A stretch of 64,000 nt of DNA from a virus, in the IMG/VR virus record IMGVR_UViG_3300022891_000002, positions 64,001-128,000 of that record. One strand, given 5' to 3'. The notes beneath the pieces were generated by a model. The model saw nothing but the letters and a program-made list of their open reading frames with translations, did not search any database and was not told where the DNA came from. Below, in pieces: positions 11,644 through 57,035 of this stretch. A program made the position numbers and the translations under genes. Position 1 is the stretch's first letter, and every line of letters begins with the position of its first letter.

Positions 11644-12351
11644 CTAGTTTTTTTTTACGGTTTCATCTGAAATAGCTTTCTCTCTCTTGAGTCTATCTTT
11701 TACTTTTCTAGTTGCTTTATCTAATTTACCTTCTGAATTATCTACTAACCTGACAATAGAGGTTCTCTCTGGAGGTCTACCTAAACTTCCTTTCTTAGCT
11801 GGAGCTAATAGGGCTTTTTCAACTTGTAATATAGTCTGCATTTCTACTGGAAGAGATTGGTATGCTTTTTGTGCGTTACTTACTTGAATCACTTTATCCT
11901 CTGCATTTCTAGTTTTTCTTTGTGGTTTTTGTAATAAACTTCTTTCTTGTGGTTTTTTAGCAGGAGTTAGTAACTTGTTTCCTTCAGACTTCTTAGTAAC
12001 TAACTGACTCTCCTTTTGTATTTTAGTTAATATAGGAGTTTCCCAAGGGTCACTTATTAAGTTTTGAGATTTCTTACCTTGAGTTAATAGTTTAGTGTCT
12101 GGAACTTTAGTAGATTTTACATTAACTACCATATCACTAGCTTTCTTACCAAATGAAGGTAACTTAAGACCTTTCTTTTTAGCTAGTAACCCTGCTCCTA
12201 CTAATAAACCTGCCCCTCCTACTGCCAAAGCTATTTTCTTACTTCTGTTCTCATCTTTCTTACGGAAGAAGTCATCTACTCGTATTACTTTAAATCCACT
12301 CTTTCCTTTACTTACTCGGTTATGTCCTTTTACTCTATTCTTTCCAAACAT
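11644..12351 (-). CDS. Lys-rich protein with one hydrophobic helix
   Basis: Basic N-terminus RVKGHNRVSKGKSGFKVIRV, then IALAVGGAGLLVGAGLLA; ends in A AAA AAC TAG. Confidence 0.6.
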   Translation of the reverse strand: MFGKNRVKGHNRVSKGKSGFKVIRVDDFFRKKDENRSKKIALAVGGAGLLVGAGLLAKKKGLKLPSFGKKASDMVVNVKSTKVPDTKLLTQGKKSQNLISDPWETPILTKIQKESQLVTKKSEGNKLLTPAKKPQERSLLQKPQRKTRNAEDKVIQVSNAQKAYQSLPVEMQTILQVEKALLAPAKKGSLGRPPERTSIVRLVDNSEGKLDKATRKVKDRLKREKAISDETVKKN

Positions 12352-12389
12352 ATAAGATACAATTAGTTAGACACTATCAGTATATCAAA

Positions 12390-12542
12390 ATGGAAGAACA
12401 ATTAATAAGTAAGATACTTGAGATATTAAAGAAAGATAAGATAACTATTAAAGGTAACGTTCTAACTATTGGAGGTAAAGAGATTAAGCTATCTAAAGGT
12501 GGAAGTCAGAAGATTACTACTAGAATTACTCAACTAAGATAG
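12390..12542 (+). CDS. 50-aa ORF resembling the N-terminus of the 18524..21499 protein (not in ORF track)
   Basis: MEEQLISKILEILKKD...SQKITTRITQLR vs MNDDQVVFKILKLLENN...AEQITERIIQLR. Confidence 0.5.
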   Translation: MEEQLISKILEILKKDKITIKGNVLTIGGKEIKLSKGGSQKITTRITQLR

Positions 12543-18523: not shown

Positions 18524-21499
18524 ATGAATGATGACCAAGTAGTTTTCAAAATCCTGAAGTTACTAGAAAATAATACTGCTTTTATTGGTTACGCAATAAA
18601 CGGTGGAATTGGAACAAAGATAAATGTCCGAAATACTGAAACAGGGAAAACTATTCAAGCTTTATCTATTAATGTAGATTCTAGTGGAGAAGTTTTAGTA
18701 GTTAAAGATTCTAATGATGGTAAATATAAAGCAGTTACTTTTAAATCTGCTGAACAAATTACGGAGAGAATTATACAGCTAAGAAAGACTAAGCCAATAG
18801 ATGATAAGAAAACTATCGAATACACCGACTCAGATATTGAAGTTTTTTATTTATTTGTGAAATTGATAGATACAGGTTCTCCATATCCTACTCAATTACA
18901 ATCTACTTGGATAAGAAAAGGTAGCTCTTGTACTCAGTTTGTAGGTGCTTATGAGAGATGTAATTATGCTGCTAAAGACACTATTAATGGGGTAGATTAT
19001 ACAGGATTGCCTTATGAACCTTATTTTTCACTTACAGATTGTCTTAATAATGACTTAAGTAGAGATGCCCGAACACCTCATGGTGGTAGAGATGAACAAG
19101 GTATGGGAGCGGGTACTGTAGTTTACAGCTCACGAGTTACAGCCGATGAAGAACAAAGAATAAAAGGCGCATTACTATCTCATGATGGCGAGTTCGGTAC
19201 AACTTTTGCGGATAGATTTGGTTACGCTAGTATTTTAGATTGTTCTGGGGCAATGTATATTGAGGGTTGGCAATATTCTAATAGTTTAAAAACTGGAGAA
19301 CCTTACTTACATTGTGACTTTGGTTTTTTGCCGGGTTTTTCCAATGAGTGTACCTTAGAAATGCAGATAGCAGGATATTGTGATTCAAGAGGTTATATTA
19401 ATAGTAAAACTCCTCCACCTGGAACACCTGGAGTAGGAAGTATCGATAATAGCTGGGCATACGAATATGGTTGGATAAATCTACCTTATAGTTTTATGTA
19501 TAAAAGACATTTTCAACCTCTTTATGTAGACGGAGACTTCGCCAGAGGTACTTTCTTGATTCTAGAAATTAATCCTTTAACTCAAACACCTCTCATTCCT
19601 GAAGGTTTATTTCCCTGGATTTCTGGTTGTCCACCTGTTCCTAACGGCCCGTATAATGGCAGTGGGGGTAATAGGTTTCCTCAAGGCCCACCTCCACCTA
19701 AAAGACGTGATATGAAACTATCTACTCATAAAGCCGAAATCTGGCTAGGTAGTAGTAAAAAAGAAGAAGCTATTAAATTGTATGAGTTAGGTGCTAGCGA
19801 TTTATTTTCTGGAATGTACAATGCTTTTATTCTAAGAGCTAATGAAACTCAAGTAGATATAAATAGTAGACTAGGAAGAAGCACCAGTCTTACTCAAGAA
19901 GAACAGTTACGTCATGATAAATTCTATGAAAATTGTAATAAAAATATAATTGACTTACGAATTGACCCTAGAGTCTGGGTATTTATAATAGACAACATTC
20001 CTAACTCAGATTTTGGTGTTAGACCTGCTGTAGACATTGATATTCCTGCTACAGACCCTAAAAATATCAATTTACAACAAATGATAAATAATCTATATAA
20101 CAGAACTATTAATCTGACTATTGTAGATAAAAAAACTCAAATTGTACATTTAAAACTAGGTCTAACTCCTAAAAATACGTTGAGCAATACAGATTGTAAA
20201 GGTGTATCTAATACTAGCAATCCAACTCCTGCAAACGATTTAATTTCTAGTCAAAGCTGGGAGTATCAAAAAACAGTAACAATAAAGATTACAGACTGGG
20301 AAATAGAAAGTATTAGTAATAACTTGGATACTAGCTCCCTACCTACTGAAACATGGAACAAACAATACATAGAAAAAAAATATTTTACTTCTTTTGGTAG
20401 AAGCTGGTCTACTTTTGGAACAGGATTAGGAGGTGGACTATTCAAAACAGACCGTGATTTTGCTAATGATATTCTTTTACAGTCAGATAGCAGTATATTT
20501 CTAACTAATTTAACATCAGGTAATAACTATGAACAGTACAATTACAGCCAATCTAAATCTCCTACAGAAAATAATCTAGACCTTAGACTCTTTCCAAATA
20601 GTTGTTTTCTCATAGCTAAACCTAATTCATCTGCTGACGCGAATAGGTTAGTTCTTAAGTCTACTAATAGTTGGTGGGCTTTATGGGATAGAAGCATCTT
20701 GGACAGTAAAAATAAACGTTTAAGCTCTATAGTAGGTTACGATGTCAACTATTATCAAATAATTACAAGTTACGGTTTAAGTCCTAATTTGACATATACA
20801 GGTACTAATAATATTAGACAAATAAGTAATGAAAGCTATTTTGAATATCTAACTACTCGACCTAAAAAATACGTACCTTCCAATATTAGAAGCATACGGA
20901 ATAAATTAATACCTACTGCTGATAATGACGCTGCGACTCTACTTACTAGAAATAGTATATTAAATAGTTACGGATTAAACCACTTTTATGTCTATGTAAA
21001 TAATAATTGGTCTAAATACGCAACTAACAGATTAGATGGAATATCTCTCCCTTTTATTGGAGAATCTTCTCTTTTTTACTCTTTAGGCACTTACTACGAC
21101 ACTAGAGAAAATCTATTATTAGCAGATAAGTTCTTCTCTTCTCCGTCTGAAAGAATAAGCACTCGTCAATGGTTTAACAGATTATGGGGACAATTTATTT
21201 TTGATGGTTCTATTAAAGTAGATGTGGATTCTTATAAAAAAGTTGAATTTCAACATCCAAACAATCCTGCACAATACATAAAATATACTGTCTCGTCTCA
21301 AAACAGTAATAGTGAGTATAATTTTATACTAGGTACTCCTCAACAAGAATTAGAAACCGTTCTTACACCTGGAGTTCTAGACGTAACAAAACAAGTTCCC
21401 ATCAAAAAACCTACTAATGTAGAACTAGACCCAAACATGAGCTTCCTCGTATACCTGTATCCGTTCGTGGAAGTTAAGAAAAAGACTAAGGAAATCTAG
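18524..21499 (+). CDS. Large putative virion/tail protein (991 aa)
   Basis: Long + strand ORF ending the tail cluster; Cys/Gly/Pro-rich central region. Confidence 0.5.
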   Translation: MNDDQVVFKILKLLENNTAFIGYAINGGIGTKINVRNTETGKTIQALSINVDSSGEVLVVKDSNDGKYKAVTFKSAEQITERIIQLRKTKPIDDKKTIEYTDSDIEVFYLFVKLIDTGSPYPTQLQSTWIRKGSSCTQFVGAYERCNYAAKDTINGVDYTGLPYEPYFSLTDCLNNDLSRDARTPHGGRDEQGMGAGTVVYSSRVTADEEQRIKGALLSHDGEFGTTFADRFGYASILDCSGAMYIEGWQYSNSLKTGEPYLHCDFGFLPGFSNECTLEMQIAGYCDSRGYINSKTPPPGTPGVGSIDNSWAYEYGWINLPYSFMYKRHFQPLYVDGDFARGTFLILEINPLTQTPLIPEGLFPWISGCPPVPNGPYNGSGGNRFPQGPPPPKRRDMKLSTHKAEIWLGSSKKEEAIKLYELGASDLFSGMYNAFILRANETQVDINSRLGRSTSLTQEEQLRHDKFYENCNKNIIDLRIDPRVWVFIIDNIPNSDFGVRPAVDIDIPATDPKNINLQQMINNLYNRTINLTIVDKKTQIVHLKLGLTPKNTLSNTDCKGVSNTSNPTPANDLISSQSWEYQKTVTIKITDWEIESISNNLDTSSLPTETWNKQYIEKKYFTSFGRSWSTFGTGLGGGLFKTDRDFANDILLQSDSSIFLTNLTSGNNYEQYNYSQSKSPTENNLDLRLFPNSCFLIAKPNSSADANRLVLKSTNSWWALWDRSILDSKNKRLSSIVGYDVNYYQIITSYGLSPNLTYTGTNNIRQISNESYFEYLTTRPKKYVPSNIRSIRNKLIPTADNDAATLLTRNSILNSYGLNHFYVYVNNNWSKYATNRLDGISLPFIGESSLFYSLGTYYDTRENLLLADKFFSSPSERISTRQWFNRLWGQFIFDGSIKVDVDSYKKVEFQHPNNPAQYIKYTVSSQNSNSEYNFILGTPQQELETVLTPGVLDVTKQVPIKKPTNVELDPNMSFLVYLYPFVEVKKKTKEI

Positions 21500-26152: not shown

Positions 26153-26170
26153 GTGATTAATCTCCTCAAG

Positions 26171-26238
26171 TTTCTACTTTTTTAGAAATATAAGCTATAA
26201 TGTTAGTATGTCCAAATAAAAAAGGTGTCTCGAATTTA
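26171..26238 (+). promoter_or_regulatory. Promoter/leader of helicase-like copy 1, homologous to that of copy 2
   Basis: TTCTACTTTTTT with TATAAT starting 24 bp later, then AAAGGT-GTCT-CGAATTTA. Copy 2 has TGCTACTTTTT with TATACT 24 bp later, then AAAGGT-ACA-CGAATTTA. Confidence 0.55.
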
Positions 26239-27917
26239 TGTACTACTCAGACAAATACTCGGAAATTCCAAACGGAATAGTTAATAAAGCAGCTACAGGT
26301 ATAGGTTTAACCAGTTTTGCCTTAGAAAATGAAGTTCCGACCGTAGTTGTTACTCCCACAGTAGCAATGATTAAAAATAAGGTTTCCCAGTATCCAAACA
26401 ATAGAAGATTAGATTCAGTAATAGGACTTTACCAAGGAGTTTCTTTAAATAGCATTAAAGACTATATAGGAAAAACTACTGTCCCAAAGATAATGGTTAC
26501 TTATGACAGTTTTTATAAAGTAGCTCCTTTAATAGATAGTAGTTACCAAATAATTGTGGATGAGTTTTCTGAACTGCTAGACGCATATAACTACAGAAAT
26601 AAAGCAATATCCAAGCTATTAATTGAAATTCAGAAATTTAATAGAGTCTCTTATGTATCAGCTACTCCAACTAAAACAGAATATTTACCTCCTCAGTTAA
26701 AAGAACTACCTTATACTACTTTAATCTGGGATGATTTAACCAAAATCAATATTGACTTATTACATAAGAAGCGTCCTATTCAAACTGTTAGAGCTTTAAT
26801 TAATAAATATAAAAGTGGTTTAGTAGAGATTAATGGAATAAAGAGTGAAGCAGGCTATTTCTTTGTTAACAGCGTTCGGATGATTAAAGAAATATGTGAG
26901 AAAGCCGAACTACTAAACTCGGAAGTAAGAATTATTTGTGCGGATACAGATAAGAATAAACGGACATTAGGAGACTATGATATCTCTACTTCTCTTGACC
27001 CAGAGACTATGTTCACGTTTATTACTTCCTGTAGTTTTAAAGGATTAGATTTCTACAGTGAACGAGGAGTAGTCTTTGTAGTATCTAATAATACTAATAC
27101 TCATACATTAGTAACTATAGACACTGACATTATCCAAATAGCAGGTAGAATAAGAAATCCAACAAATCCCTTTAGAAACTATCTATGTCATATCTTCAAT
27201 ATCAATCCTTTAAGTCTAACAAGAGAAGAGTTCGTAAGAGTAACTGAAGAAAAGATAAAGCAAAGTAATACTCTACTACAAGGATATAGTAAGCTTACTG
27301 ATGAAGAAAGAGCCTTATTTCTATCTACTCAAAACTTAGAAAACTTCTATATTTCTGTTACAGAAGACGGAGTTCCTTACTATGATGAGATGTTGTACTT
27401 ATTAGATAAACGCAGATACGAAGATATAGCCCAAGTCTATAAAGATGGTTTATCTGTCAATAGTTATTACTCCTCTCTAGATAAAGTTGATATCTTACCT
27501 TCTACTAAACTAGACATTGATTACCTAGTTAATAACTCTTTTTATTCTCTTTGCAAAACTGCTGTTGAAGGGAAAGGTGATTTAGAAGTTATCTACGAAC
27601 AATTTCCTTTAATTAAAGAGGCTATAGAAAAGCTAGGAGTAGAAAGAGTTAAATGTTTAGGATTTAATAATACTAAAATACAACATGAAATCGACGACTA
27701 CAATAAGAAAGACTCTGTTAGAACAGTTGTACTAAAAGAAATAGAAAGAGATAGGTTCTATAGTTGTAAAGATATAAAGATAGCTCTTGGATATATTTAT
27801 ACTCGCTTAGGGGTACGTGCAACTGCTAAAGCTACGGACATCTTAGAATACTGTAACGCTAAACTTTGTTGTAAAAAAATAAATGATAAATCTGTGAAAG
27901 GTTATCTTGTAGAGTAA
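26238..27917 (+). CDS. Divergent SF2 helicase-like protein, copy 1 (origin-binding-helicase-like, basic wHTH-like C-terminus)
   Basis: Motif I NKAATGIGLT (no canonical Lys), II IIVDEFS, III VSATP, V TSCSFKGLDF, VI QIAGRIR; paralog of 38852..40639. Confidence 0.75.
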   Translation: MYYSDKYSEIPNGIVNKAATGIGLTSFALENEVPTVVVTPTVAMIKNKVSQYPNNRRLDSVIGLYQGVSLNSIKDYIGKTTVPKIMVTYDSFYKVAPLIDSSYQIIVDEFSELLDAYNYRNKAISKLLIEIQKFNRVSYVSATPTKTEYLPPQLKELPYTTLIWDDLTKINIDLLHKKRPIQTVRALINKYKSGLVEINGIKSEAGYFFVNSVRMIKEICEKAELLNSEVRIICADTDKNKRTLGDYDISTSLDPETMFTFITSCSFKGLDFYSERGVVFVVSNNTNTHTLVTIDTDIIQIAGRIRNPTNPFRNYLCHIFNINPLSLTREEFVRVTEEKIKQSNTLLQGYSKLTDEERALFLSTQNLENFYISVTEDGVPYYDEMLYLLDKRRYEDIAQVYKDGLSVNSYYSSLDKVDILPSTKLDIDYLVNNSFYSLCKTAVEGKGDLEVIYEQFPLIKEAIEKLGVERVKCLGFNNTKIQHEIDDYNKKDSVRTVVLKEIERDRFYSCKDIKIALGYIYTRLGVRATAKATDILEYCNAKLCCKKINDKSVKGYLVE

Positions 27918-27924
27918 GGTTACT

Positions 27925-27948
27925 GGGAGTTTTAGGACTCCCTTTCTT
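27925..27948 (+). terminator. Intrinsic terminator-like hairpin
   Basis: GGGAGT-TTTAGG-ACTCCC-TTTCTT, 8 bp after the stop codon. Confidence 0.6.
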
Positions 27949-28004
27949 ATCTACTTCTTTGGTATGTTAAAGTTTACAAAGGAGAAATAAACTATCAACT
28001 AATA

Positions 28005-29309
28005 ATGAAAACAAAACTACAACCTACCAGACAATTTGAAGAACAGTTATACACAACTAATCATTCCTCTAAGATATCTAAGTTATCTGACTCTACTATT
28101 CAAGAAATTAGTTGGGAAGGTAAGTATACTGTAGATGACTTAATCCACTTCATTCACAAAGACCCAATAGCAAAAGCTTGCGTAGATGTAAAATGTTTGA
28201 GAGCTGCTAATACATTCGGTACTTATCAACATAGTAAACCAGATATTACGGACTTCATGCAAGATATGTTCGGTAATATGAGAGATACATTAAAGAAAAG
28301 TGTAGCTGAATTATCTATTGCTCCTGCTCTTGGTTTTTCTGTAGCTGAAATCAATTTCAAGATGGATAAAGAAGGATATTTAAAACTAGAAAGTATCTAT
28401 CCATTAAGTTTAGAGAGAGTCAAATTTAAGGGTTCAAAAGGATATATTGAGTGGGTTCTTTATAATGACAGACATAAATCTAACATTCATATCCCATACA
28501 AGAAAGTCATTCATGTAACCAACTCTGCTGCTACTACATTCAACGACCCATTTGGAAATGCTGAGGCTGGACTGGCTTATCCATTTTGGAAGGCTAAAGT
28601 AGCTATTTTTGGAGACATGATTATTTCTACTAGAAACTTAGCTACTGGTATTTTAGTGGGAAGAGTTGATAGTGCTGCTACTATTAATGCTACAGTGACA
28701 GATGCTTATGGTAACACTCTAATGGGAAGAGACGGTCAACCTCTTCGGAAAAATGCAGCTCAAGTAATGTATGACAAGTTAAGTAATGTAGAAAACAACA
28801 CAATTATTGTTACCGATAAAGCTAATGAGATTACCGCTCTTAATGTTCCTGATGGTAGTCAGTCATGGGATATCTCTCTTAATAGATTTGATAAACTAAT
28901 TCATAGAGCATTTGGAGTTCCTCAATTAATCTTTGAAGAAGGTAGCGGTTCAATTGGAGTAGCAACACTATCAGTAAAACAATCTACTTTACTTGATGCG
29001 AATATAGAAGTTGTAGTAAATCAAATTCAAGACCAAATCATTGAGAAAATCTGTAAACCAATAATTATTAACAACTTTGGTAAACAGAAAGATTACGGTA
29101 AATTTACTATTGATTCTTCTTCCGACCCAGGAGTAGAAATGCAGCAATTGCAAAACATATTTACTGCGGTATCAATGGGAATTCTATCAGCAGATGACCC
29201 TGTAATAAATAATAGAATTAGAGGAATACTAGGACTTCCATTACAAACTGAACAAGAGATAGAAGAAGCAAAAGCTCTGAAGCAAATAGAACAACAAAGC
29301 CAAATTTAA
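28005..29309 (+). CDS. Portal protein (DUF935/Mu gp29-like)
   Basis: 434 aa; ALGFSVAEINF, HIPYKKVIH, DPFGN...AYPFWKAK, EKICKPIIINNFG and IRGILGLP; AAGGAG upstream. Confidence 0.7.
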   Translation: MKTKLQPTRQFEEQLYTTNHSSKISKLSDSTIQEISWEGKYTVDDLIHFIHKDPIAKACVDVKCLRAANTFGTYQHSKPDITDFMQDMFGNMRDTLKKSVAELSIAPALGFSVAEINFKMDKEGYLKLESIYPLSLERVKFKGSKGYIEWVLYNDRHKSNIHIPYKKVIHVTNSAATTFNDPFGNAEAGLAYPFWKAKVAIFGDMIISTRNLATGILVGRVDSAATINATVTDAYGNTLMGRDGQPLRKNAAQVMYDKLSNVENNTIIVTDKANEITALNVPDGSQSWDISLNRFDKLIHRAFGVPQLIFEEGSGSIGVATLSVKQSTLLDANIEVVVNQIQDQIIEKICKPIIINNFGKQKDYGKFTIDSSSDPGVEMQQLQNIFTAVSMGILSADDPVINNRIRGILGLPLQTEQEIEEAKALKQIEQQSQI

Positions 29310-37988: not shown

Positions 37989-38699
37989 TTAATACAAGTA
38001 GAATAGTGGATTAGCACACATATAATTACCAAAATCTGTATCTAAAATATCTAGTAACTTTTGTGGCACCACATCTTCCTCTCTAGCACAATACGTGTCC
38101 CCAAATAAATCCTCTGTTTCAAATTTAGATTTCTCATCTCTACTAAGTAGATAGGCTAACCCTTTAGTATTTATTATTGCTATACAAAAATCAATCCACA
38201 TTTCAGGATTAATTTCCAGCAGTTGACGTAACACTTTATTTACTACTTCTCTCGTTGCTTTTAGTTCTGACTGTTGGATAGATTCAATTATCTTAGTGTC
38301 AAAAGTAGTATAAGAAGAAATACTGTACGCACCTAACTTAAACAATTTACTCTCTATAGCAGTAGCTAAATGCTTTGGTACATCTTTATTACAATTACGT
38401 CCCCACTGTAACCAATAACGACTTTCTACATCTACTACATACTCTGTTCCCTTAATACTCACAACAGGTAAACTAAGAAACTTTTTATGAGTATCAAATA
38501 TATCTGCTCCTAATTCTTCTATTCTTTCGTCTACTAATTGTTCAAATTTCTTTTTTAGGTTAGATACGGTATCTGTAGTGAAATTATACTTGTACTGGTC
38601 TACTTTTACTAACTCAACAATTTCCCCTACTAGACAATTTCTATCTAAATCAGTTGTTATTTTAAGAGTAAAACCTTCGTATCTTAGTGTATCAGTCAT
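37989..38699 (-). CDS. HicB-like N-terminal domain fused to a domain paralogous to 36526..37065
   Basis: LRYEGFTLKITTDLDRNCLVGEIV...FTTDTVSNLKKKFEQLVDE, the closest match here to the HicB consensus. Confidence 0.6.
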   Translation of the reverse strand: MTDTLRYEGFTLKITTDLDRNCLVGEIVELVKVDQYKYNFTTDTVSNLKKKFEQLVDERIEELGADIFDTHKKFLSLPVVSIKGTEYVVDVESRYWLQWGRNCNKDVPKHLATAIESKLFKLGAYSISSYTTFDTKIIESIQQSELKATREVVNKVLRQLLEINPEMWIDFCIAIINTKGLAYLLSRDEKSKFETEDLFGDTYCAREEDVVPQKLLDILDTDFGNYMCANPLFYLY

Positions 38700-38717
38700 A
38701 AATTTTGTTTCCTTTTT

Positions 38718-38779
38718 ACTGTTACTTTTTTATTATCAGCTAAATCCACTAAGCCCACAGATTAATAAAAATTACCGCA
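38718..38779. repeat. Left bipartite site (arm B - spacer - arm A) flanking helicase-like copy 2
   Basis: ACTGTTACTTTTTTATTA...ATAAAAATTACCGCA; inverted copy at 40641-40702. Confidence 0.85.
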
Positions 38780-38791
38780 AATTATCTAGAG

Positions 38792-38846
38792 TTGCTACTT
38801 TTTAAATAATTTGTGATATACTATAAAGGTACACGAATTTACCGCA
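38792..38846 (+). promoter_or_regulatory. Promoter of helicase-like copy 2 overlapped by extra arm B and arm A half-sites
   Basis: TTGCTA...TGA-TATACT (extended -10); arm B TGCTACTTTTT at 38793 and arm A TTTACCGCA at 38838-38846. Confidence 0.55.
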
Positions 38847-38851
38847 ACTCA

Positions 38852-40639
38852 ATGATTATTATCGACGCACCTCCTAATTCCCGTTATTGTTCAGAATTTA
38901 TGACTGAACTGCCTAAAGGGATAATTGACAAACATGAAACTGGTGTAGGAGCATCAGTATTAGCTCTTGAAGACCAAAATCCGTACATCTTAGCAGTTCC
39001 TACTATTGAGATTATCAGAAACAAAGTAGAGCAATATCCTAACTATAGAAGAGAAGAAAAGATATTTGGTTTTTATGGTGGAGTTAAAGAAAGAGATTTA
39101 CTTTTCTATGCGAACTCTACTAAAATCCCAAAGATAATGGTTACTTATGATAGTTTTGATAGAGTTTCTAAATTGCTATCTAGTGATAAAGATAAATATA
39201 GAGTTCTAGTAGATGAGTTCTCTGACTTATTAGATGCTTACTCTTATAGAGATGCAGCAATTGACAGGTTACTTAATGCGGTTAAAGATTTTGATTATGT
39301 AACTTATATCTCGGCTACTCCTATTAAGTCTGAATACTACCCAGAATGTTTGAAGGGATTGGATGAGTATCAGATTAACTGGGGAGAATATACAAAAGTC
39401 AAAGTAGAAAGGAAGAAGACTAATAAACCTTACCAGTTAGCTTGTAATATTATTGAGGCGTATAAAGCTGCTGGGGATGAAGGTATTAAAATGCCTAACG
39501 GTCAGTATAGTAAGTCCGCTTATTTCTTTGTTAACTCCGTAAATTCAATTCTAAATATAATAGAAGCTGCGGATTTACGTCCTAGTGAAGTTCGAGTTAT
39601 TTGTGCTAATAACAAAGTTAACCAAAGCAAGATGGACTTATTTCAAATAGAAAAAGCACTTGACCCAGAGAAGAAATTCAACTTTATAACTTCTACGGCT
39701 TTTAAAGGATGTGACTTCTACTCCGAAACTGGAGTTATCTATGTAGTTAGCAATACTCAGAATAAGAACACTTTAATTTCTATTGACACTGATATCAGAC
39801 AAATAGCTGGTAGAATTAGAACTCTTAGTAATCCTTTTAGGAAGGAAATTTATCATCTTTACAATACTGACTCTAGCTTATTATCTCAGGAAGAGTTTGA
39901 CGAATTAATTAAAACCAAGGTAGAGCAAACTACTAATCTACTATCTCTCTACCACAAAGGTAATGAATCTGAGCAGAAAGCTTTCTTAATAGATTGGGAG
40001 AGTAATACTAAATATGGTTACTCAGATGATAACTATATTAGTAAAAGTATTGATGGTGAACTCTACTTCAATCACTATATGATGCTCAATGATAAGAGAA
40101 GATGGGAAATATCTAGTAACGTCTACAGAGATGGATTAAGTGTTAGAGAAGCTTATGTAGAAGCCGGATTTGAATTAGTAGCTAATGACCAGGACTTCGT
40201 TAACGTTCAAAATGAAAACAGTTTTATTCATAGACTAAGTAGTAAGTCTTTCAAATCTAATTGTTTGAGCTATATTGATAATGAAAACGAGAGGGTCTAC
40301 TTAGGAGATAGATTCCCTCTCATCAAAGAAAGTTATGAACAACTAGGAGCTGAGAGAATGAAAGCTGTCAACTATCTACCGGACAGACTTAAGAACGAGC
40401 TTAAGTTTAAGAACGTAGATATTCAACAGTGTATCAAATCTGAGCTAAGAAGACTACTAGCTGTAGGAGAGGTTTACACACTATCTCACCTAAAGACTGT
40501 AATTAACGATGTCTATACACGACTACACTTAAGCAAAAAAGGTAAAGCTAGTGATGTTACCCAGTATTGCTCTACTAGAACTAAGAGTATTCGGATAGAT
40601 GGAAAGACAGTTAAAGTAATGGAGATTTTAGAAGAATAA
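38852..40639 (+). CDS. Divergent SF2 helicase-like protein, copy 2
   Basis: DKHETGVGAS, VLVDEFS, ISATP, FFVNSV, TSTAFKGCDF and QIAGRIR motifs; basic C-terminus LKTVINDVYTRL....KGKASDV; likely start ATG 38852 (MIIIDAPP). Confidence 0.78.
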   Translation: MIIIDAPPNSRYCSEFMTELPKGIIDKHETGVGASVLALEDQNPYILAVPTIEIIRNKVEQYPNYRREEKIFGFYGGVKERDLLFYANSTKIPKIMVTYDSFDRVSKLLSSDKDKYRVLVDEFSDLLDAYSYRDAAIDRLLNAVKDFDYVTYISATPIKSEYYPECLKGLDEYQINWGEYTKVKVERKKTNKPYQLACNIIEAYKAAGDEGIKMPNGQYSKSAYFFVNSVNSILNIIEAADLRPSEVRVICANNKVNQSKMDLFQIEKALDPEKKFNFITSTAFKGCDFYSETGVIYVVSNTQNKNTLISIDTDIRQIAGRIRTLSNPFRKEIYHLYNTDSSLLSQEEFDELIKTKVEQTTNLLSLYHKGNESEQKAFLIDWESNTKYGYSDDNYISKSIDGELYFNHYMMLNDKRRWEISSNVYRDGLSVREAYVEAGFELVANDQDFVNVQNENSFIHRLSSKSFKSNCLSYIDNENERVYLGDRFPLIKESYEQLGAERMKAVNYLPDRLKNELKFKNVDIQQCIKSELRRLLAVGEVYTLSHLKTVINDVYTRLHLSKKGKASDVTQYCSTRTKSIRIDGKTVKVMEILEE

Positions 40640-40640
40640 C

Positions 40641-40702
40641 TGCGGTAATTTTTATAAACGTCTATGACTCGTATGCCCAGAGATTAATAAAAAAGTAGCA
40701 GT
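40641..40702. repeat. Right bipartite site (arm A' - spacer - arm B'), starting 2 bp after the stop codon
   Basis: TGCGGTAATTTTTAT...TAATAAAAAAGTAGCAGT is the inverted copy of 38718-38779. Confidence 0.85.
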
Positions 40703-40804
40703 TAGGAGTGATAGGTTATTATTCAAGATATGTTTAGATGTTTCTAAATTTAACTCAAATAATAGTCTACCACTCTCTATAAGTTGATTAGAAATTAGAA
40801 GTTT

Positions 40805-41182
40805 TTAAATCTTATATCCTGAGAAGAAATGTCCTTTTACTTCATCAGGACTGCTTAGATAAAATGCGTTTTTGTAGAGATTATAGATATTATTAATTTT
40901 CATATCTATGGTAACTGCATCATAATCATTAGCATCTATCTCTTCTCTTAGTATTTCTAGCTGTCTTTCATATTGAACCATTAATGGATTGTTTATAAGC
41001 TTAAAGTGTTTTCTATTTTCTCTCCTTATGTCTAGATGTTTCTTGAATTGACTTTGTAATCTTTCTACAGAAGTATCTTTCTTGAAGAAATAGACGTTTG
41101 AACAAATACCATAAACAAATCCATTTGCTTCAGTTACAGTCATAAAGATATCGTCATCTTCGATTAGAGATTCAACTGTCAT
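40805..41182 (-). CDS. HicB-like domain protein (divergent)
   Basis: FMTVTEANGFVYGICS...DTSVERLQSQFKKHLD. Confidence 0.45.
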   Translation of the reverse strand: MTVESLIEDDDIFMTVTEANGFVYGICSNVYFFKKDTSVERLQSQFKKHLDIRRENRKHFKLINNPLMVQYERQLEILREEIDANDYDAVTIDMKINNIYNLYKNAFYLSSPDEVKGHFFSGYKI

Positions 41183-41267
41183 AATTCTTCCTCTAGTTAA
41201 GATTTTGTATCAGGTATCTACAAGGGTATAGGCTACAAGAATGAGATTGTTTCTACATTGATTTATT

Positions 41268-41287
41268 AGGGAGAAACTAATCTCCCT
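41268..41287. terminator. Intergenic hairpin
   Basis: AGGGAGA-AACTAA-TCTCCCT. Confidence 0.45.
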
Positions 41288-41300
41288 TTCTATTATCTAC

Positions 41301-41669
41301 TTATTCTTTCTTACTGGTTGATTCAAAATACTCTCGTCTAATATCTGCTTCACTTAAATCTAATAAATCACCGAATAACTCATGAATACTTTTAAGTTCT
41401 TGTGCCGTTCTACTAGCAGAAAAAGTAACAGAATCAAAAGATAAAGCTCTTAAATACGAGTAATATGTATGAAGTATTTTATCTTTGTAGGTTATTCTAG
41501 AATCTACTTCTTTCTTAAACTTGTTAAAAAGATTGTCTACATTAGTACCTTTAAAGACATAAGTAGGTGAAAATTCTGGACAAGTGCTTTCATAATAAGT
41601 AATACCGTCATCTTCTGCTAATGTAGCTACTCTTAATAGATAGCCTTTGTACTTCAATTCGTCTGACAT
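41301..41669 (-). CDS. HicB-like domain protein
   Basis: LKYKGYLLRV...YYESTCPEF...FKGTNVDNLFNKFKKEVD. Confidence 0.55.
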   Translation of the reverse strand: MSDELKYKGYLLRVATLAEDDGITYYESTCPEFSPTYVFKGTNVDNLFNKFKKEVDSRITYKDKILHTYYSYLRALSFDSVTFSASRTAQELKSIHELFGDLLDLSEADIRREYFESTSKKE

Positions 41670-44277: not shown

Positions 44278-45586
44278 TTCCTTCTCCGGATAAATCTAAA
44301 TCATCTAATCTAACGAACTCTGAATTATCTTGTTTTGCCACTTCTACAGATACTTCAAATGCTTCATGGTCAGGTAAATTTAATTCTTGAGTTGCAAAGT
44401 CGTAAGATGCTAAGTCAAACTCTGTTAAGTTAAGATTATTTGGGTCAGTCATAATTTTTCTCATCTTCTATTAATAGAAAATATTTAGAGCATAGTCATA
44501 CTTATCTAACTCAATCTTTGTTTCTATGAATTGAGATAAATAATCTACTTGTTCTTGAGTAGTTATTTCTGCTCCATCTTCACCAAATATTAATCCTACT
44601 TCTTTTAGTTTTTTCTCGGTTATAGAGTTAGGTAATGCTTCTTCTCCTAATCTATCTTGATAGTCTTCTTCTTCACTAATTTTGTTATACCAATTTAAGA
44701 CTATTTCTTTAGTAAATTTCTCACTAAATGTATATTTATTCTCTTCTTCTTTTTGCTCAATATAATCAAGCATTTGTTGAGCGATTCTATCTAGTTTCCT
44801 TATCGCTGTTCCACATTCAGGATGAAATGATAATCCTTTACCATCAATATAGTCTCTAATTTCTTCTAACTGTTCACTAAATTCTTGATAAGTCATTGTT
44901 TTTCTCCCTATTAGAGAGCTTAGTTACTTTACTCTCATATAAACTACTAATTACTCTTTGTTAGCTATTTGGTTGTAGTAAATAAGTTCACCATCATCAT
45001 TCAAATAACCTATTACTGAATAAGGGACTTTAGGAGAACTACTATAAGTAGAAGGAGAATATTGAATGGTGTTTTGACTAATTACCTCATTAATCTCTTT
45101 AGTATCTTTACCGTTATGAGAGTTAGTGATTGGTACATACTCCTCACAACTTCTGTATCCTCTAACCATGAAACCTGGAAGATATCTAACTAATGTATCT
45201 GGCTTTTCTCCTAAGAGGAGGTCTGCCGACTCTACAAATTCTGTATCTGGTTCGTTTTCAGAACGAGTCTCAGACGAGTTAAATACCATGTTGTCATTTA
45301 AATCTAAGTAACCTACTTGAACTAAAGCATTTTTAGTAGAAGAGCTATCTTTGTAGTAGCAAGAAGTTACATACTTGTATACTCCTCTTGTTTTCATTAG
45401 GATTTCTTTTTCCATTTTCTTTTCCTCAGTTTTGTTCAAAATAGATACAAGTCCTTCCTTCTCTTCTTGTTCTTTAATATGACTCAACATTTCTTTTGCT
45501 AGTTTCCAAAGTCCTTCTATATTACAATGGCTACTCCAATCTTCTTCTTGCCTTAGTATCTCACGTTCAAAATGTTTATAAGTCAT
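44270..45586 (-). CDS. Hypothetical proteins (44270..44464, 44471..44896, 44951..45586)
   Basis: The 44471 and 44951 ORFs share the N-terminus MTY..F......A..ML..I.++EE; 44951 also carries the VGYLD/VIGYLN repeats. Confidence 0.5.
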
Positions 45587-45717
45587 TTGTTCTCTCCTTT
45601 AGTTAACAAGCCTATCGTAATAAATCACTTCTACTATTCCTGCTTTATGCTCTACATAACCAATAACTCCTTTTCTTACCTGAAGTAATTGCTTAGATAT
45701 ATCTGGCATGGTTTCTC

Positions 45718-46296
45718 CTATTCGTAAATAGTTCTAAATGTAAGATTAATTCTCGGTTCTACTTTCCTAGATGTCTTAAGAATTGAGTGTTGCCAATAAT
45801 GTTGAGTTTCTCCTCTCATGACTAATAAACTTCCAGATGTAAGAGAGATAGATTCTTTATAGTCTAAGTATTTGTGCTTTAATTTGAAGTCTCTAGTAGC
45901 ACCAAAACTAATAGAAGCAATTACAGGATTTCTACCTAACTCTTTTTCATCGTCAGAATGCCAAGAAACAAAATCTTGACCATCTCGATAGAGATTTAGT
46001 AGAACACTATTAAACGGATGAACCACTCTTTCTTCTACCGCAGATTTTAGAGATAAAAGAGTTGGAGTCCAAGCATTTGGTTCTAATCTAAGTCCTGAAT
46101 AAGTGTAAGGTGCGTCCCCATACCAAGCTGTTAACCTAGGAATTTGTACTTCTCTTCCTGAAAAGTTGAGAGTTTTAGTTTCCCATTTGATGTCTTTTAG
46201 TAGTTTAGTGTAGAAGTAGTGACTATCAAACTCATCAAAGAAGTTAGGATAATAAGTAATATCCGAGTTGGGCAAGTCATAAGTTATAGTGTTCAT
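45718..46296 (-). CDS. alkB: AlkB-family 2OG-Fe(II) dioxygenase (ALKBH2/3-like)
   Basis: PRLTAWYGD, YTYSG, FNSVLLNLYRDG.D..SWHSDDE, SISFGA.R.F, GSLLVM...Q..WQH and RINLTFR motifs. Confidence 0.92.
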   Translation of the reverse strand: MNTITYDLPNSDITYYPNFFDEFDSHYFYTKLLKDIKWETKTLNFSGREVQIPRLTAWYGDAPYTYSGLRLEPNAWTPTLLSLKSAVEERVVHPFNSVLLNLYRDGQDFVSWHSDDEKELGRNPVIASISFGATRDFKLKHKYLDYKESISLTSGSLLVMRGETQHYWQHSILKTSRKVEPRINLTFRTIYE

Positions 46297-52924: not shown

Positions 52925-55075
52925 TTATTTCTCATTCCAATTTTTACAAGTTAGTTTGTTAGGGTCAAAACATACATCTACCGGAATTGACTTAATCCAG
53001 TATCTCAATTCAGTATGTAAACAATTCATTACTGCACTATTAATCTCAAATGAATATTCAGATAAACCAATCCAGTTAAGTTCATCGTGGCAGTTATTAC
53101 AAAATCTAGCTTTCCAATGAGGATTATTAAAGAACTCTATCTCTGCTTTACCTTGAGCAAATTTAAGAATATCTGCTTCTCCACAGAGCCAAATTAGAGA
53201 AATAGAATCTGTATAAGGAACTTCATAAGTAGTATAGGTTTTACCTGTTTTAGTTGTAAAAGTCTTCTCTTGCTTTTTTAAATGTACCGTTCTATTAGTA
53301 AAAGTCTTACATTTACCGTAATGCCCTGAAGTAGGTTGACCATTAGCATTAAAGAAAGGGAATTCTATATTATACTTGTTACACTCTTTAACATAGTTTT
53401 GGATAAATTCGTAGAGTACATTATAAGTTTTTCTATAAGCTTGCTGAATTAATTTACATTGTTCTTCACTTACTTCTACCCCATTCTTTCTAAAGCTTGT
53501 TTGTATAGTTTTAGCTCCTGCCTGATTGAGACCTGAGTAATTAGCTTCCTTCCCGAACTTCCTGTACTTAGATATTAGTGGGTCAGGATTATCTTGTTTA
53601 TATAAAGTTACTGCTTCGTCATACCCAAAATTGTGACCATCATAAATAGCAATAGAGTTACCCATAATAATATGAGCATCTTTACCATTACCATAAATCT
53701 CTAATAATGTGGGGTCTTTAGATAATTCAGTACAGATTCTATAGTGACTCTGACTTAAATCCATAATTCCCAAAAAATAACCTTCTGGGGCTTTAAAGAA
53801 TGTTCTAAAGTCAGGTAATCCTTCTTCTTTAAAAAAACTTGGTGTTTTAGCTGGGTTCTGAAGTTGAGCGCCAATGTTAATAGCTTTCTTACTTCCCTTA
53901 GAATTTTTGTATTTTAAAGTACCATTACAACTTGACCTACCTGAACCTGAAGGAGTCATTTGTCTATAATTAGTACGAACAGAATAGAAGTCTTCCTCAG
54001 GATTCTTCCAAGCTACATCTCTTATACCTTCTGCATATTGAATAAGAACGTTCAAAGTCCTCATCCTTAGTAGAGCTTTAGCTTCTGGATACTTAACTCT
54101 TTTTAGTGCTTCTACGTCTAATGACTGTAATTTAAGCTCCGGCCATTTCTCATTAAAAGCTTGTCTTAGTAACTCTACTTGTCCCCAATTTACATCTGGA
54201 AAACTAACTGTGATAATCTCTTTATATTCTTCTAACTTTTTCCTATACTCAAAAACATTCTTTTCTAATAAATCCTTATCAATAGGAAAACCAAATACTT
54301 CCATTTCAATAAAAGCAGGAAGTACAAGAGATTCTGCCATTACGGAGTAATATAAGTCTTCTCTTATAACTAACTCCTGAATATATGGAAATAATTGTAG
54401 AGGTAAGATTGAGTCATTTCCTGAATAATTATACTTAGCATTTGAAATTCTCCATCCCCAATCTTCTTTCTGTTCACTCTTATCTATTTCAAATTTAGTG
54501 TTGAAAAGAATGTTTACTCGTTCAGTAATAGCTTTAAGAGAGTGAGATAATAAACATCTATCTTCTCTATTTTTAGATTTATTACCAGGGATTACTTCTA
54601 CTCCTGCCCAAATTACTTGCGAACATAACATTAAATCTCTACAGCACAGTATTTTAATACCTAAATGGTAGAGTAGAAAGTTACCATCAAACTTTAGATT
54701 AACCCCTACTACCGGGACTTTTAGATTCTCACATCTCTCTTTAAATACTTGGTAGAATCTACTAGCAAAAAACTCTTTCTTCTTTTCATCTATATTATCT
54801 AAGTTTCCACCTAAATCATATATTAGTGCATAATATTGACCATCTACCTTGATTCCTACTGAGATAAGTCTTATTAACCCAAACTTAAAATATAATGCGC
54901 TATATTCTTCGTCACCATGAGTTTCTAAGTCAGTAGAGAATATCTTAGCAACTGAGAACTTATCTACCCATTCATTCCATACTTTATCTTCTACTTTGCC
55001 ATGAACAATTATATTTGGCTCAAGAGGAACATCTTTTGCTAGTATATCTGACCACTTTAACTGTAGAGTTTTCAT
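52925..55075 (-). CDS. polA: DNA polymerase family A with 3'-5' exonuclease (divergent)
   Basis: ExoI DLET, ExoII NLKFD, ExoIII YSGND; SGRSS...LQN; motif A DLSQSHYRI; motif B RKFGKEANYSGLNQ; motif C CHDEL. Confidence 0.9.
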   Translation of the reverse strand: MKTLQLKWSDILAKDVPLEPNIIVHGKVEDKVWNEWVDKFSVAKIFSTDLETHGDEEYSALYFKFGLIRLISVGIKVDGQYYALIYDLGGNLDNIDEKKKEFFASRFYQVFKERCENLKVPVVGVNLKFDGNFLLYHLGIKILCCRDLMLCSQVIWAGVEVIPGNKSKNREDRCLLSHSLKAITERVNILFNTKFEIDKSEQKEDWGWRISNAKYNYSGNDSILPLQLFPYIQELVIREDLYYSVMAESLVLPAFIEMEVFGFPIDKDLLEKNVFEYRKKLEEYKEIITVSFPDVNWGQVELLRQAFNEKWPELKLQSLDVEALKRVKYPEAKALLRMRTLNVLIQYAEGIRDVAWKNPEEDFYSVRTNYRQMTPSGSGRSSCNGTLKYKNSKGSKKAINIGAQLQNPAKTPSFFKEEGLPDFRTFFKAPEGYFLGIMDLSQSHYRICTELSKDPTLLEIYGNGKDAHIIMGNSIAIYDGHNFGYDEAVTLYKQDNPDPLISKYRKFGKEANYSGLNQAGAKTIQTSFRKNGVEVSEEQCKLIQQAYRKTYNVLYEFIQNYVKECNKYNIEFPFFNANGQPTSGHYGKCKTFTNRTVHLKKQEKTFTTKTGKTYTTYEVPYTDSISLIWLCGEADILKFAQGKAEIEFFNNPHWKARFCNNCHDELNWIGLSEYSFEINSAVMNCLHTELRYWIKSIPVDVCFDPNKLTCKNWNEK

Positions 55076-55349
55076 ATGTATACCTATCTACTGTTTTCCA
55101 GAAATCTTTTGCATAAGAATAAGGAGACTCACCTACTACAAATATGTCCATACTTTCTCCGTTTAAATAGATACACCCTGAGTAAGGAGCATCGCAATCA
55201 TCACCATACTGACTCTCTACTTTACAGACAAATCCCGCGTAATGTAAATCTTGGTTACAAAAATCTCTTTGCCATCTTATTAGCTCATCTATACCTACTA
55301 AGTTACTTAAATACTCTCGAATATCTTTGTGTTCTAAATTATTACTCAT
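55020..55349 (-). CDS. Protein with a HicB-like domain
   Basis: LHYAGFVCKVE...YSGCI...FVVGESPYSYAKDFWKTVDRY. Confidence 0.5.
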   Translation of the reverse strand: MSNNLEHKDIREYLSNLVGIDELIRWQRDFCNQDLHYAGFVCKVESQYGDDCDAPYSGCIYLNGESMDIFVVGESPYSYAKDFWKTVDRYTYENSTVKVVRYTSKRCSS

Positions 55350-55399
55350 CTTACTTCTCCTTATATGTTAAACTTTATTAGTTCCAATCAATTAGTTAC

Positions 55400-55654
55400 A
55401 TGACTCCTAAATTTTTGACCAAGTTAGAAGACTTATTTAGCTACCATCCTCCTAAGACTGATGAAGAAAGAGAACAACATAACGTAGTCAACCAAGCATC
55501 TATTGAATACGCAAAGTCACTAGCTCAAGTAGTAAAAAATCCTGCTGAGCTAACTACTATCCTTAGAGAAATTCAAAAGGTACGTATGTTAGCCAATGCT
55601 TCTGTATGTTACGAACGAGTAGGTATTAATTATCGAGACTTGTTCTCTGAGTAA
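55400..55654 (+). CDS. Acb2/Tad1-like helical hairpin protein (candidate immune-signal sponge)
   Basis: LEDLFSYHPPK..E...H..V......AKSL.......ELTTILREIQKVRMLANASV; an isolated + strand gene. Confidence 0.6.
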   Translation: MTPKFLTKLEDLFSYHPPKTDEEREQHNVVNQASIEYAKSLAQVVKNPAELTTILREIQKVRMLANASVCYERVGINYRDLFSE

Positions 55655-55670: not shown

Positions 55671-55709
55671 CCTCTAGAGTTTATTAGTAGTTCTAGAGGA
55701 TTCTTCTTT
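55671..55709. terminator. Hairpin between convergent genes
   Basis: CCTCTAGA-13 nt-TCTAGAGG followed by ATTCTTCTTT. Confidence 0.5.
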
Positions 55710-55715
55710 ATCTAC

Positions 55716-56129
55716 TTACTTCAGGAACTCTTCTTCTATAATGTCTGCTATTTGTTCAAAAGATAATTTAAATCTATCATTGAGACTAATCAATGATACC
55801 TGCTCTCTATCTATATAAGACATACCTACTTTCTCCATCTGATACATAGGTAACTTAGAATTAGTAGTTTTTATCAGAACATTATTACAGTCAATACCTA
55901 GATAACCTAACATTGAGTTAGGAAGTACGCCACTACTACCACTAAACATATAACACTCTTTATCTGTAGGCTCCAGATTCCAATCAATACCTAAGTCTTT
56001 CTTACTAATATCACAAAAGACTCCTAAGCAACAAAACTCATCATTTATATTCCTAAGTGCTTTTCTTCCTTGCTTGTATTTACCACTTCTTAAAGCATCT
56101 ACACATTTCTGAATCCTTTCTCTATTCAT
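55716..56129 (-). CDS. Conserved phage hypothetical protein
   Basis: VDALRSGKYKQG..AL.....FCCLGVFCD...LND...SFEQIADIIE. Confidence 0.6.
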   Translation of the reverse strand: MNRERIQKCVDALRSGKYKQGRKALRNINDEFCCLGVFCDISKKDLGIDWNLEPTDKECYMFSGSSGVLPNSMLGYLGIDCNNVLIKTTNSKLPMYQMEKVGMSYIDREQVSLISLNDRFKLSFEQIADIIEEEFLK

Positions 56130-57035
56130 TGTCTTGTCCTCCCTCAGAACAATCAAACCAACTAATTAGATAAGACACACTTTCAGGTGTTAGTTTATAA
56201 CCTAAGATTTCTTCTCTGCTATCAAACCATGCACCTCTAATACTACTTCCCCAAGTCAAATACTGAATAAGGAACTGAACATAAACAATGTAAGTGTATT
56301 GCAACTCTTCATCATCAGGAAAAAGATAGTTTTGATTTGGCTTAGTAGGTACATCTTTCTTGTTATGGAAGTAATGAATACTCTTGATAATGTCCAATAT
56401 GTATTCCCCAATCTCTAAACTAAAGTCATCACAGTAAGTAGTTAAGTCTAAAACCTCATCAACTAGGAAAATTAGTCTTTTTTCCCTTTCTGTATATTCA
56501 TCAGGTTTAGATAAGCCCCAAACATAAAGGAAGTCTTCGTAACTATCTTTATGAGTAATATTCATTGATTGTCACACATCCATCTATATAACTCCGTAAC
56601 TCTTTCAATAGCTAGCTCTAAATCCGGGTCATTTTTATATCTCATTTCACTAATATGAGCAGATACTCCGTTTCTATACTGCATTCTTTTATAATCATCC
56701 ATTAGATACAAGTACATAAACTTAGCAATATTATCTAAAACATTAACACTGAAGAAATTAGCTAATGAAGTTAGTGATTCATAAAAGACTATCTGAACTT
56801 GCATCCACATAATCTCAAAATGTTCTTTCATAGTTATCTCCTTGTAAGTAGTTGTCCAATTGTAAAACTCAATCCACAAGTCAGCTAACTCAAAATCAAA
56901 ATCTATTCTCAACTCACGAATTCTTAAAGCTGCATTATTTCTAGCTTCTAATCTTTCTGATTCACACATCCCTTTATAAGCCGTCTTCATCAGCCAAAGA
57001 GATATAGACTTAGCAATCTTATCTAGTAAAGTCAT
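56122..57035 (-). CDS. Hypothetical proteins (56122..56565, 56562..57035)
   Basis: The 56562 ORF has an internal duplication (LDKIAK...W / LDNIAK...W). Confidence 0.5.

Follow-up and report, generated by a model that had tools for sequence, protein, structure and literature searches.

A single-gene phage cassette flanked by palindromic 60-bp units that may be recognized by its SF2-like, winged-helix product

What purpose do two matching 60-bp sites serve when they bracket a single gene in the genome of a large virus? The question is raised by the stretch of viral DNA analyzed here (the window: 64,000 nucleotides, positions 64,001 to 128,000 of IMG/VR record IMGVR_UViG_3300022891_000002), in which such sites enclose a gene for a helicase-like protein of 595 amino acids (aa), P0001. 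An initial annotation had likened them to the attL and attR products of site-specific integration and had named, as an alternative, binding sites for an origin-binding helicase. Our analysis favors an explanation of the second kind. We tentatively regard the locus as an autonomous cassette whose terminal sites would bind the product of the enclosed gene, for autoregulation plus an origin-like or end-pairing role. The arms as sites for the gene's own origin-binding-like protein are the best supported of the readings considered, with a probability of roughly 0.4, and this figure covers an origin or end-pairing role as well as plain autoregulation, between which we do not choose.

The gene lies on a virus contig of 150,360 bp with 33% G+C and overlapping ends (G000; this and all other L, G and P numbers are working labels for loci, genomes and proteins). 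As initially described, it stands alone on the plus strand, between minus-strand genes ending at 38699 and 40805. Its start codon is an ATG (coordinates of the features are collected in Table 1) and not the GTG at 38813 that had been proposed. Both flanking sites were found where they had been reported. Their inner arms (38762-38779 and 40641-40658) are 94% complementary over 18 nt, including an exact inverted repeat of 15 nt, and the outer arms, also inverted, match in 17 of 18 positions (94%) when extended to 38718-38735 and 40685-40702. The direct repeat between the sites was likewise recovered: upon direct alignment their central 45 nt are 73% identical, including a core with 18 matches in 19 positions. 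The extra half-sites noticed over the promoter are real and lie at 38793 and 38839.

The 60-bp sites are not chance matches. An 8-mer of the inner arm occurs four times in the window, where 0.34 occurrences are expected (0/100 shuffles), and five times in the whole genome, three of them at the P0001 locus; the copies of the inner motif elsewhere in the genome lie within open reading frames (ORFs). The 14-mer of the core occurs twice genome-wide, both times at this locus. For the 11-mer of the outer arm, three of only five genomic occurrences are at the P0001 locus, and the idea that this arm marks a genome-wide class of promoters was rejected on these counts. When the 163 genomic ORFs with a length of 100 aa or more were compared for inverted repeats between upstream and downstream flanks, the two longest belonged to two paralogs, the P0001 gene and one other, tied at 15 nt. 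Searches with the locus itself gave little: the region 38400-41400 had no match in Rfam, megablast found no DNA match in a phage collection, tblastn against the same collection retrieved only six distant records with uninformative annotation, and a metagenome scan for close relatives yielded only two near-identical loci.

The anatomy of the sites became apparent when the pieces in the window were aligned together with those of two orthologous loci. A single quasi-palindromic unit of 60 bp, built in the order outer arm, T-run, spacer, A-run and inner half-site, is present in three copies. Two of them, U1 and U2, are direct copies and both precede the gene, and the third, U3, is inverted and starts 2 nt past the stop codon. 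The inner half-site of U1 (A1) belongs to the divergent intergenic region and precedes the inferred start of transcription of the gene by about 55 bp. U2 has a spacer that is shorter by 6 nt and contains an extended -10 promoter element (TG at 38814-38815, hexamer at 38817-38822), which is kept in all seven close orthologs aligned. Its inner half-site (A2) occupies the expected position of a ribosome-binding site, and reading of the sequences found a Shine-Dalgarno sequence at this position in none of the seven aligned orthologs. U3 corresponds to the promoter-bearing U2 in inverted form: read in reverse, it is similar to U2 up to and including the -10 region, where its hexamer is weakened. 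The extended -10 form of the P0001 gene is not a general promoter of this genome. A scan with the sigma-70 consensus listed fewer sites than in shuffled sequence and did not list the conserved extended -10; the notion that the units are standard sigma-70 promoters was rejected because -35/-10 spacings of 20-24 nt do not fit.

This anatomy bears directly on the attL/attR interpretation, according to which a circle of 1.9 kb was inserted by site-specific integration into an outer-core-outer target. Formally the geometry fits, since the left site reads outer-core-inner, the right site inner'-core-outer', and the core is a direct repeat (18/19). However, the unit has an internal palindrome, of which U1 has retained the half beside the inner arm and U3 the half beside the outer arm. 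The core reads as a direct repeat because U3 is inverted, so that the two palindrome halves face the same way. The nested palindrome together with the inverted U3 therefore explains the apparent exchange of arms around a direct core without any recombination event, and U2, as a third copy of the unit, points in the same direction. To our knowledge, a spacer of 30 bp between the arms is unlike known core sites.

In the next step, we considered what kind of protein is encoded between the units. Sequence searches of Pfam, PHROGs and the PDB with P0001 gave no match, and the at least 185 relatives found are nearly all unnamed. The AlphaFold2 model (predicted local distance difference test, pLDDT, 86.6) contains the two tandem RecA-like domains of helicase superfamily 2 (SF2) as a core at about residues 1-440, followed by a helical linker and a C-terminal winged helix at about residues 520-595. 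A Foldseek search with this model returned more than 500 matches to SF2 proteins. Among solved structures, the core is closest in fold to RNA helicases, with Z 19.0 and a root-mean-square deviation (rmsd) of 4.0 over 298 aligned residues for Prp2 and Z 18-18.6 for eIF4A and DbpA. The structure of the origin-binding protein UL9 of herpes simplex virus 1 (HSV-1; 9hgi) ranked fifth in Foldseek (TMq 0.41, rmsd 19), and RNA helicases match the core as well as or better than UL9. The SF2 motifs II (DExx), III (SAT) and VI (QxxGRxxR) are present, with D121, E122, S154, A155, T156, Q317, G320, R321 and R323 invariant. The Walker A sequence GK[ST] is absent from 25 of 25 aligned members, in which the loop reads TG-x-G-x-[TS]-S with a variable residue other than lysine at the lysine position. 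The lack of this lysine in P0001 had been noticed initially; it turned out to be a property of the whole family and not peculiar to this protein. Seven residues ahead of the vacant position in the family alignment there is an invariant lysine, K27.

The C-terminal 158 residues, modeled alone (pLDDT 87.6), form a helical bundle plus a winged helix, in accordance with the winged helix-turn-helix-like domain that had been suspected there. Top structural matches are all winged helices of a generic kind; the best is the RFX DNA-binding domain (Z 6.3, rmsd 2.6, 66 residues aligned), and the origin-binding domain of the phage P4 protein (1ka8) reaches Z 4.6. Since the Z values are modest, the fold class is supported and no particular family. 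A two-copy model of the C-terminal region passed as a homodimer with an ipSAE of 0.51 versus 0.00 for the best control, a mark that was reached by 20 of 30 solved homodimers and by one of 23 solved monomers. Contacts agreed to 100% between runs and the partner pLDDT was 82. On these models P0001 probably pairs through its winged-helix region and is probably a sequence-specific DNA-binding protein that joins an SF2 motor-like core without the Walker A lysine to a winged helix.

Recognition of the half-sites by this protein is also suggested by the way in which both vary among relatives. The same geometry recurs in nine orthologs, with half-sites at -64 to -92 and at -8 to -16 and, in most of the nine, an inverted half-site at +2 to +10 after the stop codon (at +30 in L005); the after-stop copy was not found in two of the nine, L033 and L036. 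The inner motif differs by ortholog group and is of the type CCGCAA, CTACAA, TAACAC or a related form, or TGTCAA. The most divergent part of the protein is its C-terminal domain. In P0005, which has sites of the CTACAA type, the first 350 alignment columns are 73-100% identical to P0001 (94-100% in four of seven 50-column blocks), versus 57-62% at the C-terminus. In L001, both upstream half-sites have changed together, with the downstream one unchanged. Because A1 lies upstream of the promoter and outside the mRNA, the co-variation of A1 and A2 favors recognition of the half-sites by the encoded protein at the level of DNA, as far as sequence comparison can indicate. The initial annotation had raised the question whether flanks of homologs carry sites co-varying with the C-terminal domain. 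The motif does shift with this domain, and exact flank repeats of at least 12 nt were found in 6 of 27 family genes compared with 1 of 184 neighboring genes in the loci fetched (Fisher p = 1.7e-5); this pattern did not hold throughout the family, as will be seen below.

An explanation at the RNA level has to be weighed against the same data. The half-site in the leader would pair with its complement after the stop codon, or the 3' unit would form a hairpin. Translation, processing or stability of the mRNA would thereby be controlled, and the RNA-helicase-like protein might act on its own message. Complementarity between a motif just before the start and one just after the stop recurs with differing sequences from the phage orthologs to homologs in Pseudanabaena islands (44% identity), and the single DNA mismatch in L003 would be a G-U pair in plus-strand RNA. 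The 3' units of three orthologs fold as extended RNA hairpins with z values of -2.4 to -3.3 and differing central sequences (U3 also forms an extended hairpin when folded as DNA, z -2.65). The structural resemblance of the core to RNA helicases and the leader devoid of a Shine-Dalgarno sequence agree with this explanation. However, mirrored sequence extends beyond the transcript. L015 and L016 have flank repeats over the promoter, of 26 nt and of 31 nt (exact), respectively; in L016, the mirrored copy of the repeat has TATAGG where the upstream copy has TATAAT, and the stop codon is immediately followed by a mirror image of the leader as well. Both U1 and the promoter-proximal parts of these repeats are outside the sense mRNA because they are upstream of the transcription start. 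The concerted change of the two upstream half-sites of L001, in which the downstream one did not participate, also argues against pairing in RNA, as do the absence of a consensus structure when RNAalifold was applied to a MAFFT alignment of the 3' units, which was poor, and the lack of an Rfam match. We consider control at the RNA level quite improbable.

The placement of the cassette in related genomes was informative about its boundaries. It occurs in at least three contexts: at the position seen in the window, with the same region and orientation, in L001 (a 95% relative), L002 and L036; in L037, where a cassette 74% identical to that of the window is inserted between orthologs of window genes 11644-12351 and 12551-15055 (the products of the latter pair are 82% identical); and in L033/L034, upstream of the ortholog of 18524-21499. 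A fourth context applies to L005, whose 56% ortholog is located between orthologs of G000 54876-55628 and 55902-56658. Nucleotide homology between the window and L035 covers 38724-40700, which is exactly the cassette, and breaks at the outer arms on both ends. In L037 the left junction falls on the first base of the outer arm. These comparisons bear out the view of a discrete unit that changes place, and sequence alignment indicates that the outer arms belong to the exchanged unit and travel with the cassette. As the cassette is present at different genome positions in relatives, it is a self-contained, exchangeable unit. At 12352-12389, the empty counterpart of the L037 cassette in the window, no unit, no arm and no outer-core-outer site was found. 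For the 38.7-kb position itself, none of the relatives compared showed an empty allele. L033 was considered as a second clean pair of filled and empty sites and rejected because its flanks are rearranged. The family gene of L005 has a direct repeat of 13 nt on its two sides (5810-5825, 7855-7870), in a region with additional inserted DNA, and at the empty position of G000 a terminator is followed by a related sequence (55690-55705); the repeat may mark a site of recombination or be a coincidence in DNA rich in A+T.

These results speak against integration into an att site in several respects. The outer-core-outer sequence that had been predicted for an empty site is missing from the bare intergenic segment in the window, and the outer arms move with the cassette. 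The initial statement that no recombinase is recognizable extends to the entire 150,360-bp genome, in which neither tyrosine nor serine recombinases (Phage_integrase, PF00589; Resolvase, PF00239) gave a match under conditions where the controls did. It is true that bacterial homologs adjoin tyrosine integrases. Nevertheless, with three copies of one unit and a core that is half of a palindrome, the att-site model is largely refuted and retains hardly any probability.

Could the cassette move by itself, in the manner of a transposon? In that case the 60-bp units would serve as terminal inverted repeats, and movement or copying of the gene from site to site and from genome to genome would be promoted by its SF2/winged-helix product, either by itself or together with enzymes of the phage. 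The different contexts, the exact extent of the L035 homology, the L037 junction and the inverted repeats that directly adjoin the ORF on either side, a trait of insertion sequences, speak for this possibility. Further support comes from paralog 2, which is present or absent between close relatives: its stretch is replaced in G001 (95%) by an unrelated gene for 127 aa on the minus strand, and the left break is near an outer-type arm. There are moreover one to five family copies per genome in five related phage records, together with C-terminal fragments beside full genes. On the other side, no nuclease, DDE, HUH or recombinase domain was recognized in P0001 by Pfam, PHROG and PDB sequence searches or by structure comparison. 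No clear target-site duplication was seen at the junctions, only weak AT-rich similarity, and there is no sign of recent transposition because the paralogs in the window genome are only 30-39% identical. L001, L002 and L036 keep region and orientation. At the place syntenic to paralog 3, G001 carries another member of the family (L013), whose identity to paralog 3 is no more than 30%; by sequence, the family gene at this locus was thus replaced between G000 and G001. Turnover is not specific to the family gene, because neighboring small genes in these regions also come and go. A transposon-like cassette is unlikely on balance.

Breakpoints at the units might also arise passively. If the units were promoter/operator or hairpin elements that merely offer short homologies for general recombination, the function of the protein would be unrelated to them. 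Such shuffling is mediated by the PeSL elements of T4-type phages, which also form mini-circles (PMC2839356, PMC4122927). Each unit is indeed promoter-like, with a real extended -10 in U2 and a weakened mirror copy in U3, outer-type arms occur also at promoters of other paralogs, and breakpoints of insertions, deletions and replacements are at or near units. What distinguishes our locus is that the unit motifs are confined to it and not spread over many intergenic regions, that the flanking copies are inverted and not direct, and that the inner motif tracks the C-terminal domain. The empty site of the window, in addition, has no related element to recombine with. We take passive module boundaries to be decidedly unlikely.

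We thus return to binding of the units by P0001 as the preferred reading. Site binding, autoregulation, looping and origin function are what we infer in the following scheme. The stretch 38720-40700 would be a self-contained cassette in which the three 60-bp units are the protein's own cis sites. P0001, probably dimeric via its winged-helix region, would bind the inner half-sites. Two of these, at about -55 and +15, are arranged around the extended -10 promoter, where binding could bring about autoregulation; the one at +15 covers the translation start region. Binding at the third half-site, inverted and 2 nt after the stop, could pair the ends of the gene into a loop, and the unit might act as a portable origin-like or end-pairing module. 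Such a layout would resemble an initiator gene with its origin or operator, like P4 alpha with ori/crr, the Rep protein of Staphylococcus aureus pathogenicity islands (SaPIs) with ori, or UL9 with oriS. The outer arms would be the ends of a unit exchanged between phage genomes, presumably by the general recombination of the phages and without a dedicated recombinase. A bolder proposal would extend this to a recombinase-free selfish cassette of large phages and of cyanobacterial and Bacteroidota islands, in which the lysine-less SF2/winged-helix protein recognizes the palindromic ends of its own gene as a portable origin or end-pairing site and so amplifies or moves the cassette; this is a long shot.

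Several observations weigh against the scheme. Helicase or unwinding activity is doubtful because the Walker A lysine is missing family-wide. GC skew follows the gene strand and provides no origin signal. About 52 bp separate the two arms of a unit, so that a simple winged-helix dimer spanning both would need DNA bending. An alternative is pairing, in the mRNA, of the half-site that immediately precedes the start with the one that immediately follows the stop. The co-variation of motif and C-terminal domain is statistically weak and confounded by phylogeny, because it follows clade structure apart from one mosaic. Finally, only about a quarter of the family genes have a long exact flank repeat, and paralog 2 of the window genome has none.

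The wider family shows how these features are distributed. The window genome has three paralogs with 30-39% identity. The product of paralog 2, P0079, is 39% identical to P0001 and its gene is directly upstream of a portal-like gene (28005-29309); the third member (G000 19462-21219; L038 5463-7219) is outside the window and 30% identical. Loci of the P2 type have promoter units bracketed by inverted arms on both sides of the gene. A related contig of 130 kb carries five full copies and three C-terminal-only pieces, one of them 95 nt after a full gene and another convergent with one. ORFs or fragments confined to the winged helix were seen at G002 121090-121527, 45073-45780 and 88972-89166 and at G003 53482-53925 (L003 1968-2570), and some directly adjoin full-length family genes; they may be DNA-binding-only competitors or scars of recombination. 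In Pseudanabaena, the homolog is next to a tyrosine integrase at the island edge in three contexts (L007 6238-9749; L044 6607-9746; L045 3509-6647), and one of these islands, that of L046, contains a type I restriction-modification system and HEPN/nucleotidyltransferase pairs. In integrative elements, a replication or maintenance gene would be expected next to the integrase at the edge of the island, and this context counts in favor of the preferred reading.

Table 1. Positions of the cassette, its repeated units and related features in the window
Feature	Position	Strand	Description
Gene (P0001)	38852-40639	+	ATG 38852 to stop 40639, 595 aa
Unit U1 (left 60-bp site)	38720-38779 (38718-38782 in unit alignment)	+	Outer arm 38720-38735, core in spacer 38753-38771, inner half-site A1 38772-38780
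Unit U2	38791-38849	+	Outer-type arm 38793-38803, extended -10 promoter, inner half-site A2 38839-38847
Unit U3 (right 60-bp site)	40641-40700 (40639-40702 in unit alignment)	-	Inverted copy; A' 40641-40648, core 40675-40693, outer arm 40685-40700
Empty site	12352-12389	none	Intergenic; L037 has a 2.1-kb cassette of the same type at the matching place
Paralog 2 cassette	26154-27962	+	Gene 26238-27917 (P0079), own promoter and terminator

Some further features were observed in the surroundings. A bidirectional terminator-like hairpin is present at 41268-41287, outside the cassette, and similar hairpins follow the cassette within about 30 bp in L002, L035 and L036; the window and L001 have an extra small minus-strand gene (40805-41182) between cassette and hairpin. 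Just upstream of the gene for 834 aa near the empty site there is an unlisted plus-strand ORF of 50 aa (12390-12542), which is conserved in L037 (4186-4338). At the ends of G000, the same sequence is repeated (1-110 and 150250-150360) with a difference of 1 nt in a T-run, which points to an assembly that is circular or has terminal redundancy, although the record lists it as linear, with a completeness of 49%.

At least 185 members of the family are detectable; neither Pfam nor PHROGs has a model for it, and it has no relative of solved structure. Its proteins join a motor-like core without the catalytic lysine to a winged helix that varies, and the genes have cognate palindromic sites at either end. 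Provided that these sites are bound by the protein, nature would supply here a series of proteins matched to sites of differing specificity, and a possible route would open to replication origins or gene-level autoregulation of an uncultured group of phages of 130-150 kb. The locus would then also permit the question of how single-gene modules move between phage genomes without a recombinase to be posed for a concrete case. More generally, it illustrates that a nested palindrome can imitate attL/attR geometry.

Among known systems, UL9 of HSV-1 likewise joins an SF2 core to a C-terminal domain for sequence-specific binding of DNA, and its inverted recognition boxes in oriS, like the arms of the cassette, belong to a palindromic site between divergent promoters. 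Tethering and looping of DNA by UL9 have been reported (PMC13458718). Although the UL9 structure 9hgi is among the top Foldseek matches (TMq 0.41), the rmsd is high and there is no sequence similarity to P0001; UL9 has a canonical Walker A motif, which the P0001 family lacks. In contrast to oriS, the cassette arms are about 52 bp apart around a center that is not AT-rich, its sites are found on either side of the gene for the protein itself, and the genes occur in multiple copies. Phage P4 (alpha with ori/crr) and the SaPIs (Rep with adjacent ori) resemble the proposed cassette in that cis sites with repeats specific to the initiator adjoin or enclose its gene. In addition, Rep and ori co-vary from one element to the next, and the genes adjoin integrases in islands. 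The specificity module of P4 alpha is a C-terminal winged helix, the fold class modeled for P0001 as well (match to 1ka8, Z 4.6). However, the P4 and SaPI initiators are primase/SF3 or other helicases with an intact Walker A motif, which is missing in the P0001 family, and their sites are iteron arrays, whereas the palindromic units of the cassette are 60 bp long and form mirror images before and after its gene.

With insertion sequences the cassette shares a single gene, inverted repeats abutting the ORF, a promoter inside the left repeat, ends that are specific to each family member and positions that differ between related genomes; terminal inverted repeats are present at the ends of the mobile unit, and homology blocks end at the arms. 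Unlike insertion sequences, it has a third, direct copy of the end upstream, no recognized transposase fold, no target duplication that could be found and no identical copies within the genome. The PeSL cassettes of T4-type phages (PMC2839356, PMC4122927) are similar in that small regulatory elements border variable genes and that insertions, deletions and replacements between close relatives break at these elements. PeSLs are generic direct repeats common to many genes and act through homologous recombination, whereas the cassette units are gene-specific, inverted and co-vary with the encoded protein. The protein family itself is uncharacterized, and the cassette combines two known kinds of arrangement, initiator-with-cognate-site modules and single-gene cassettes.

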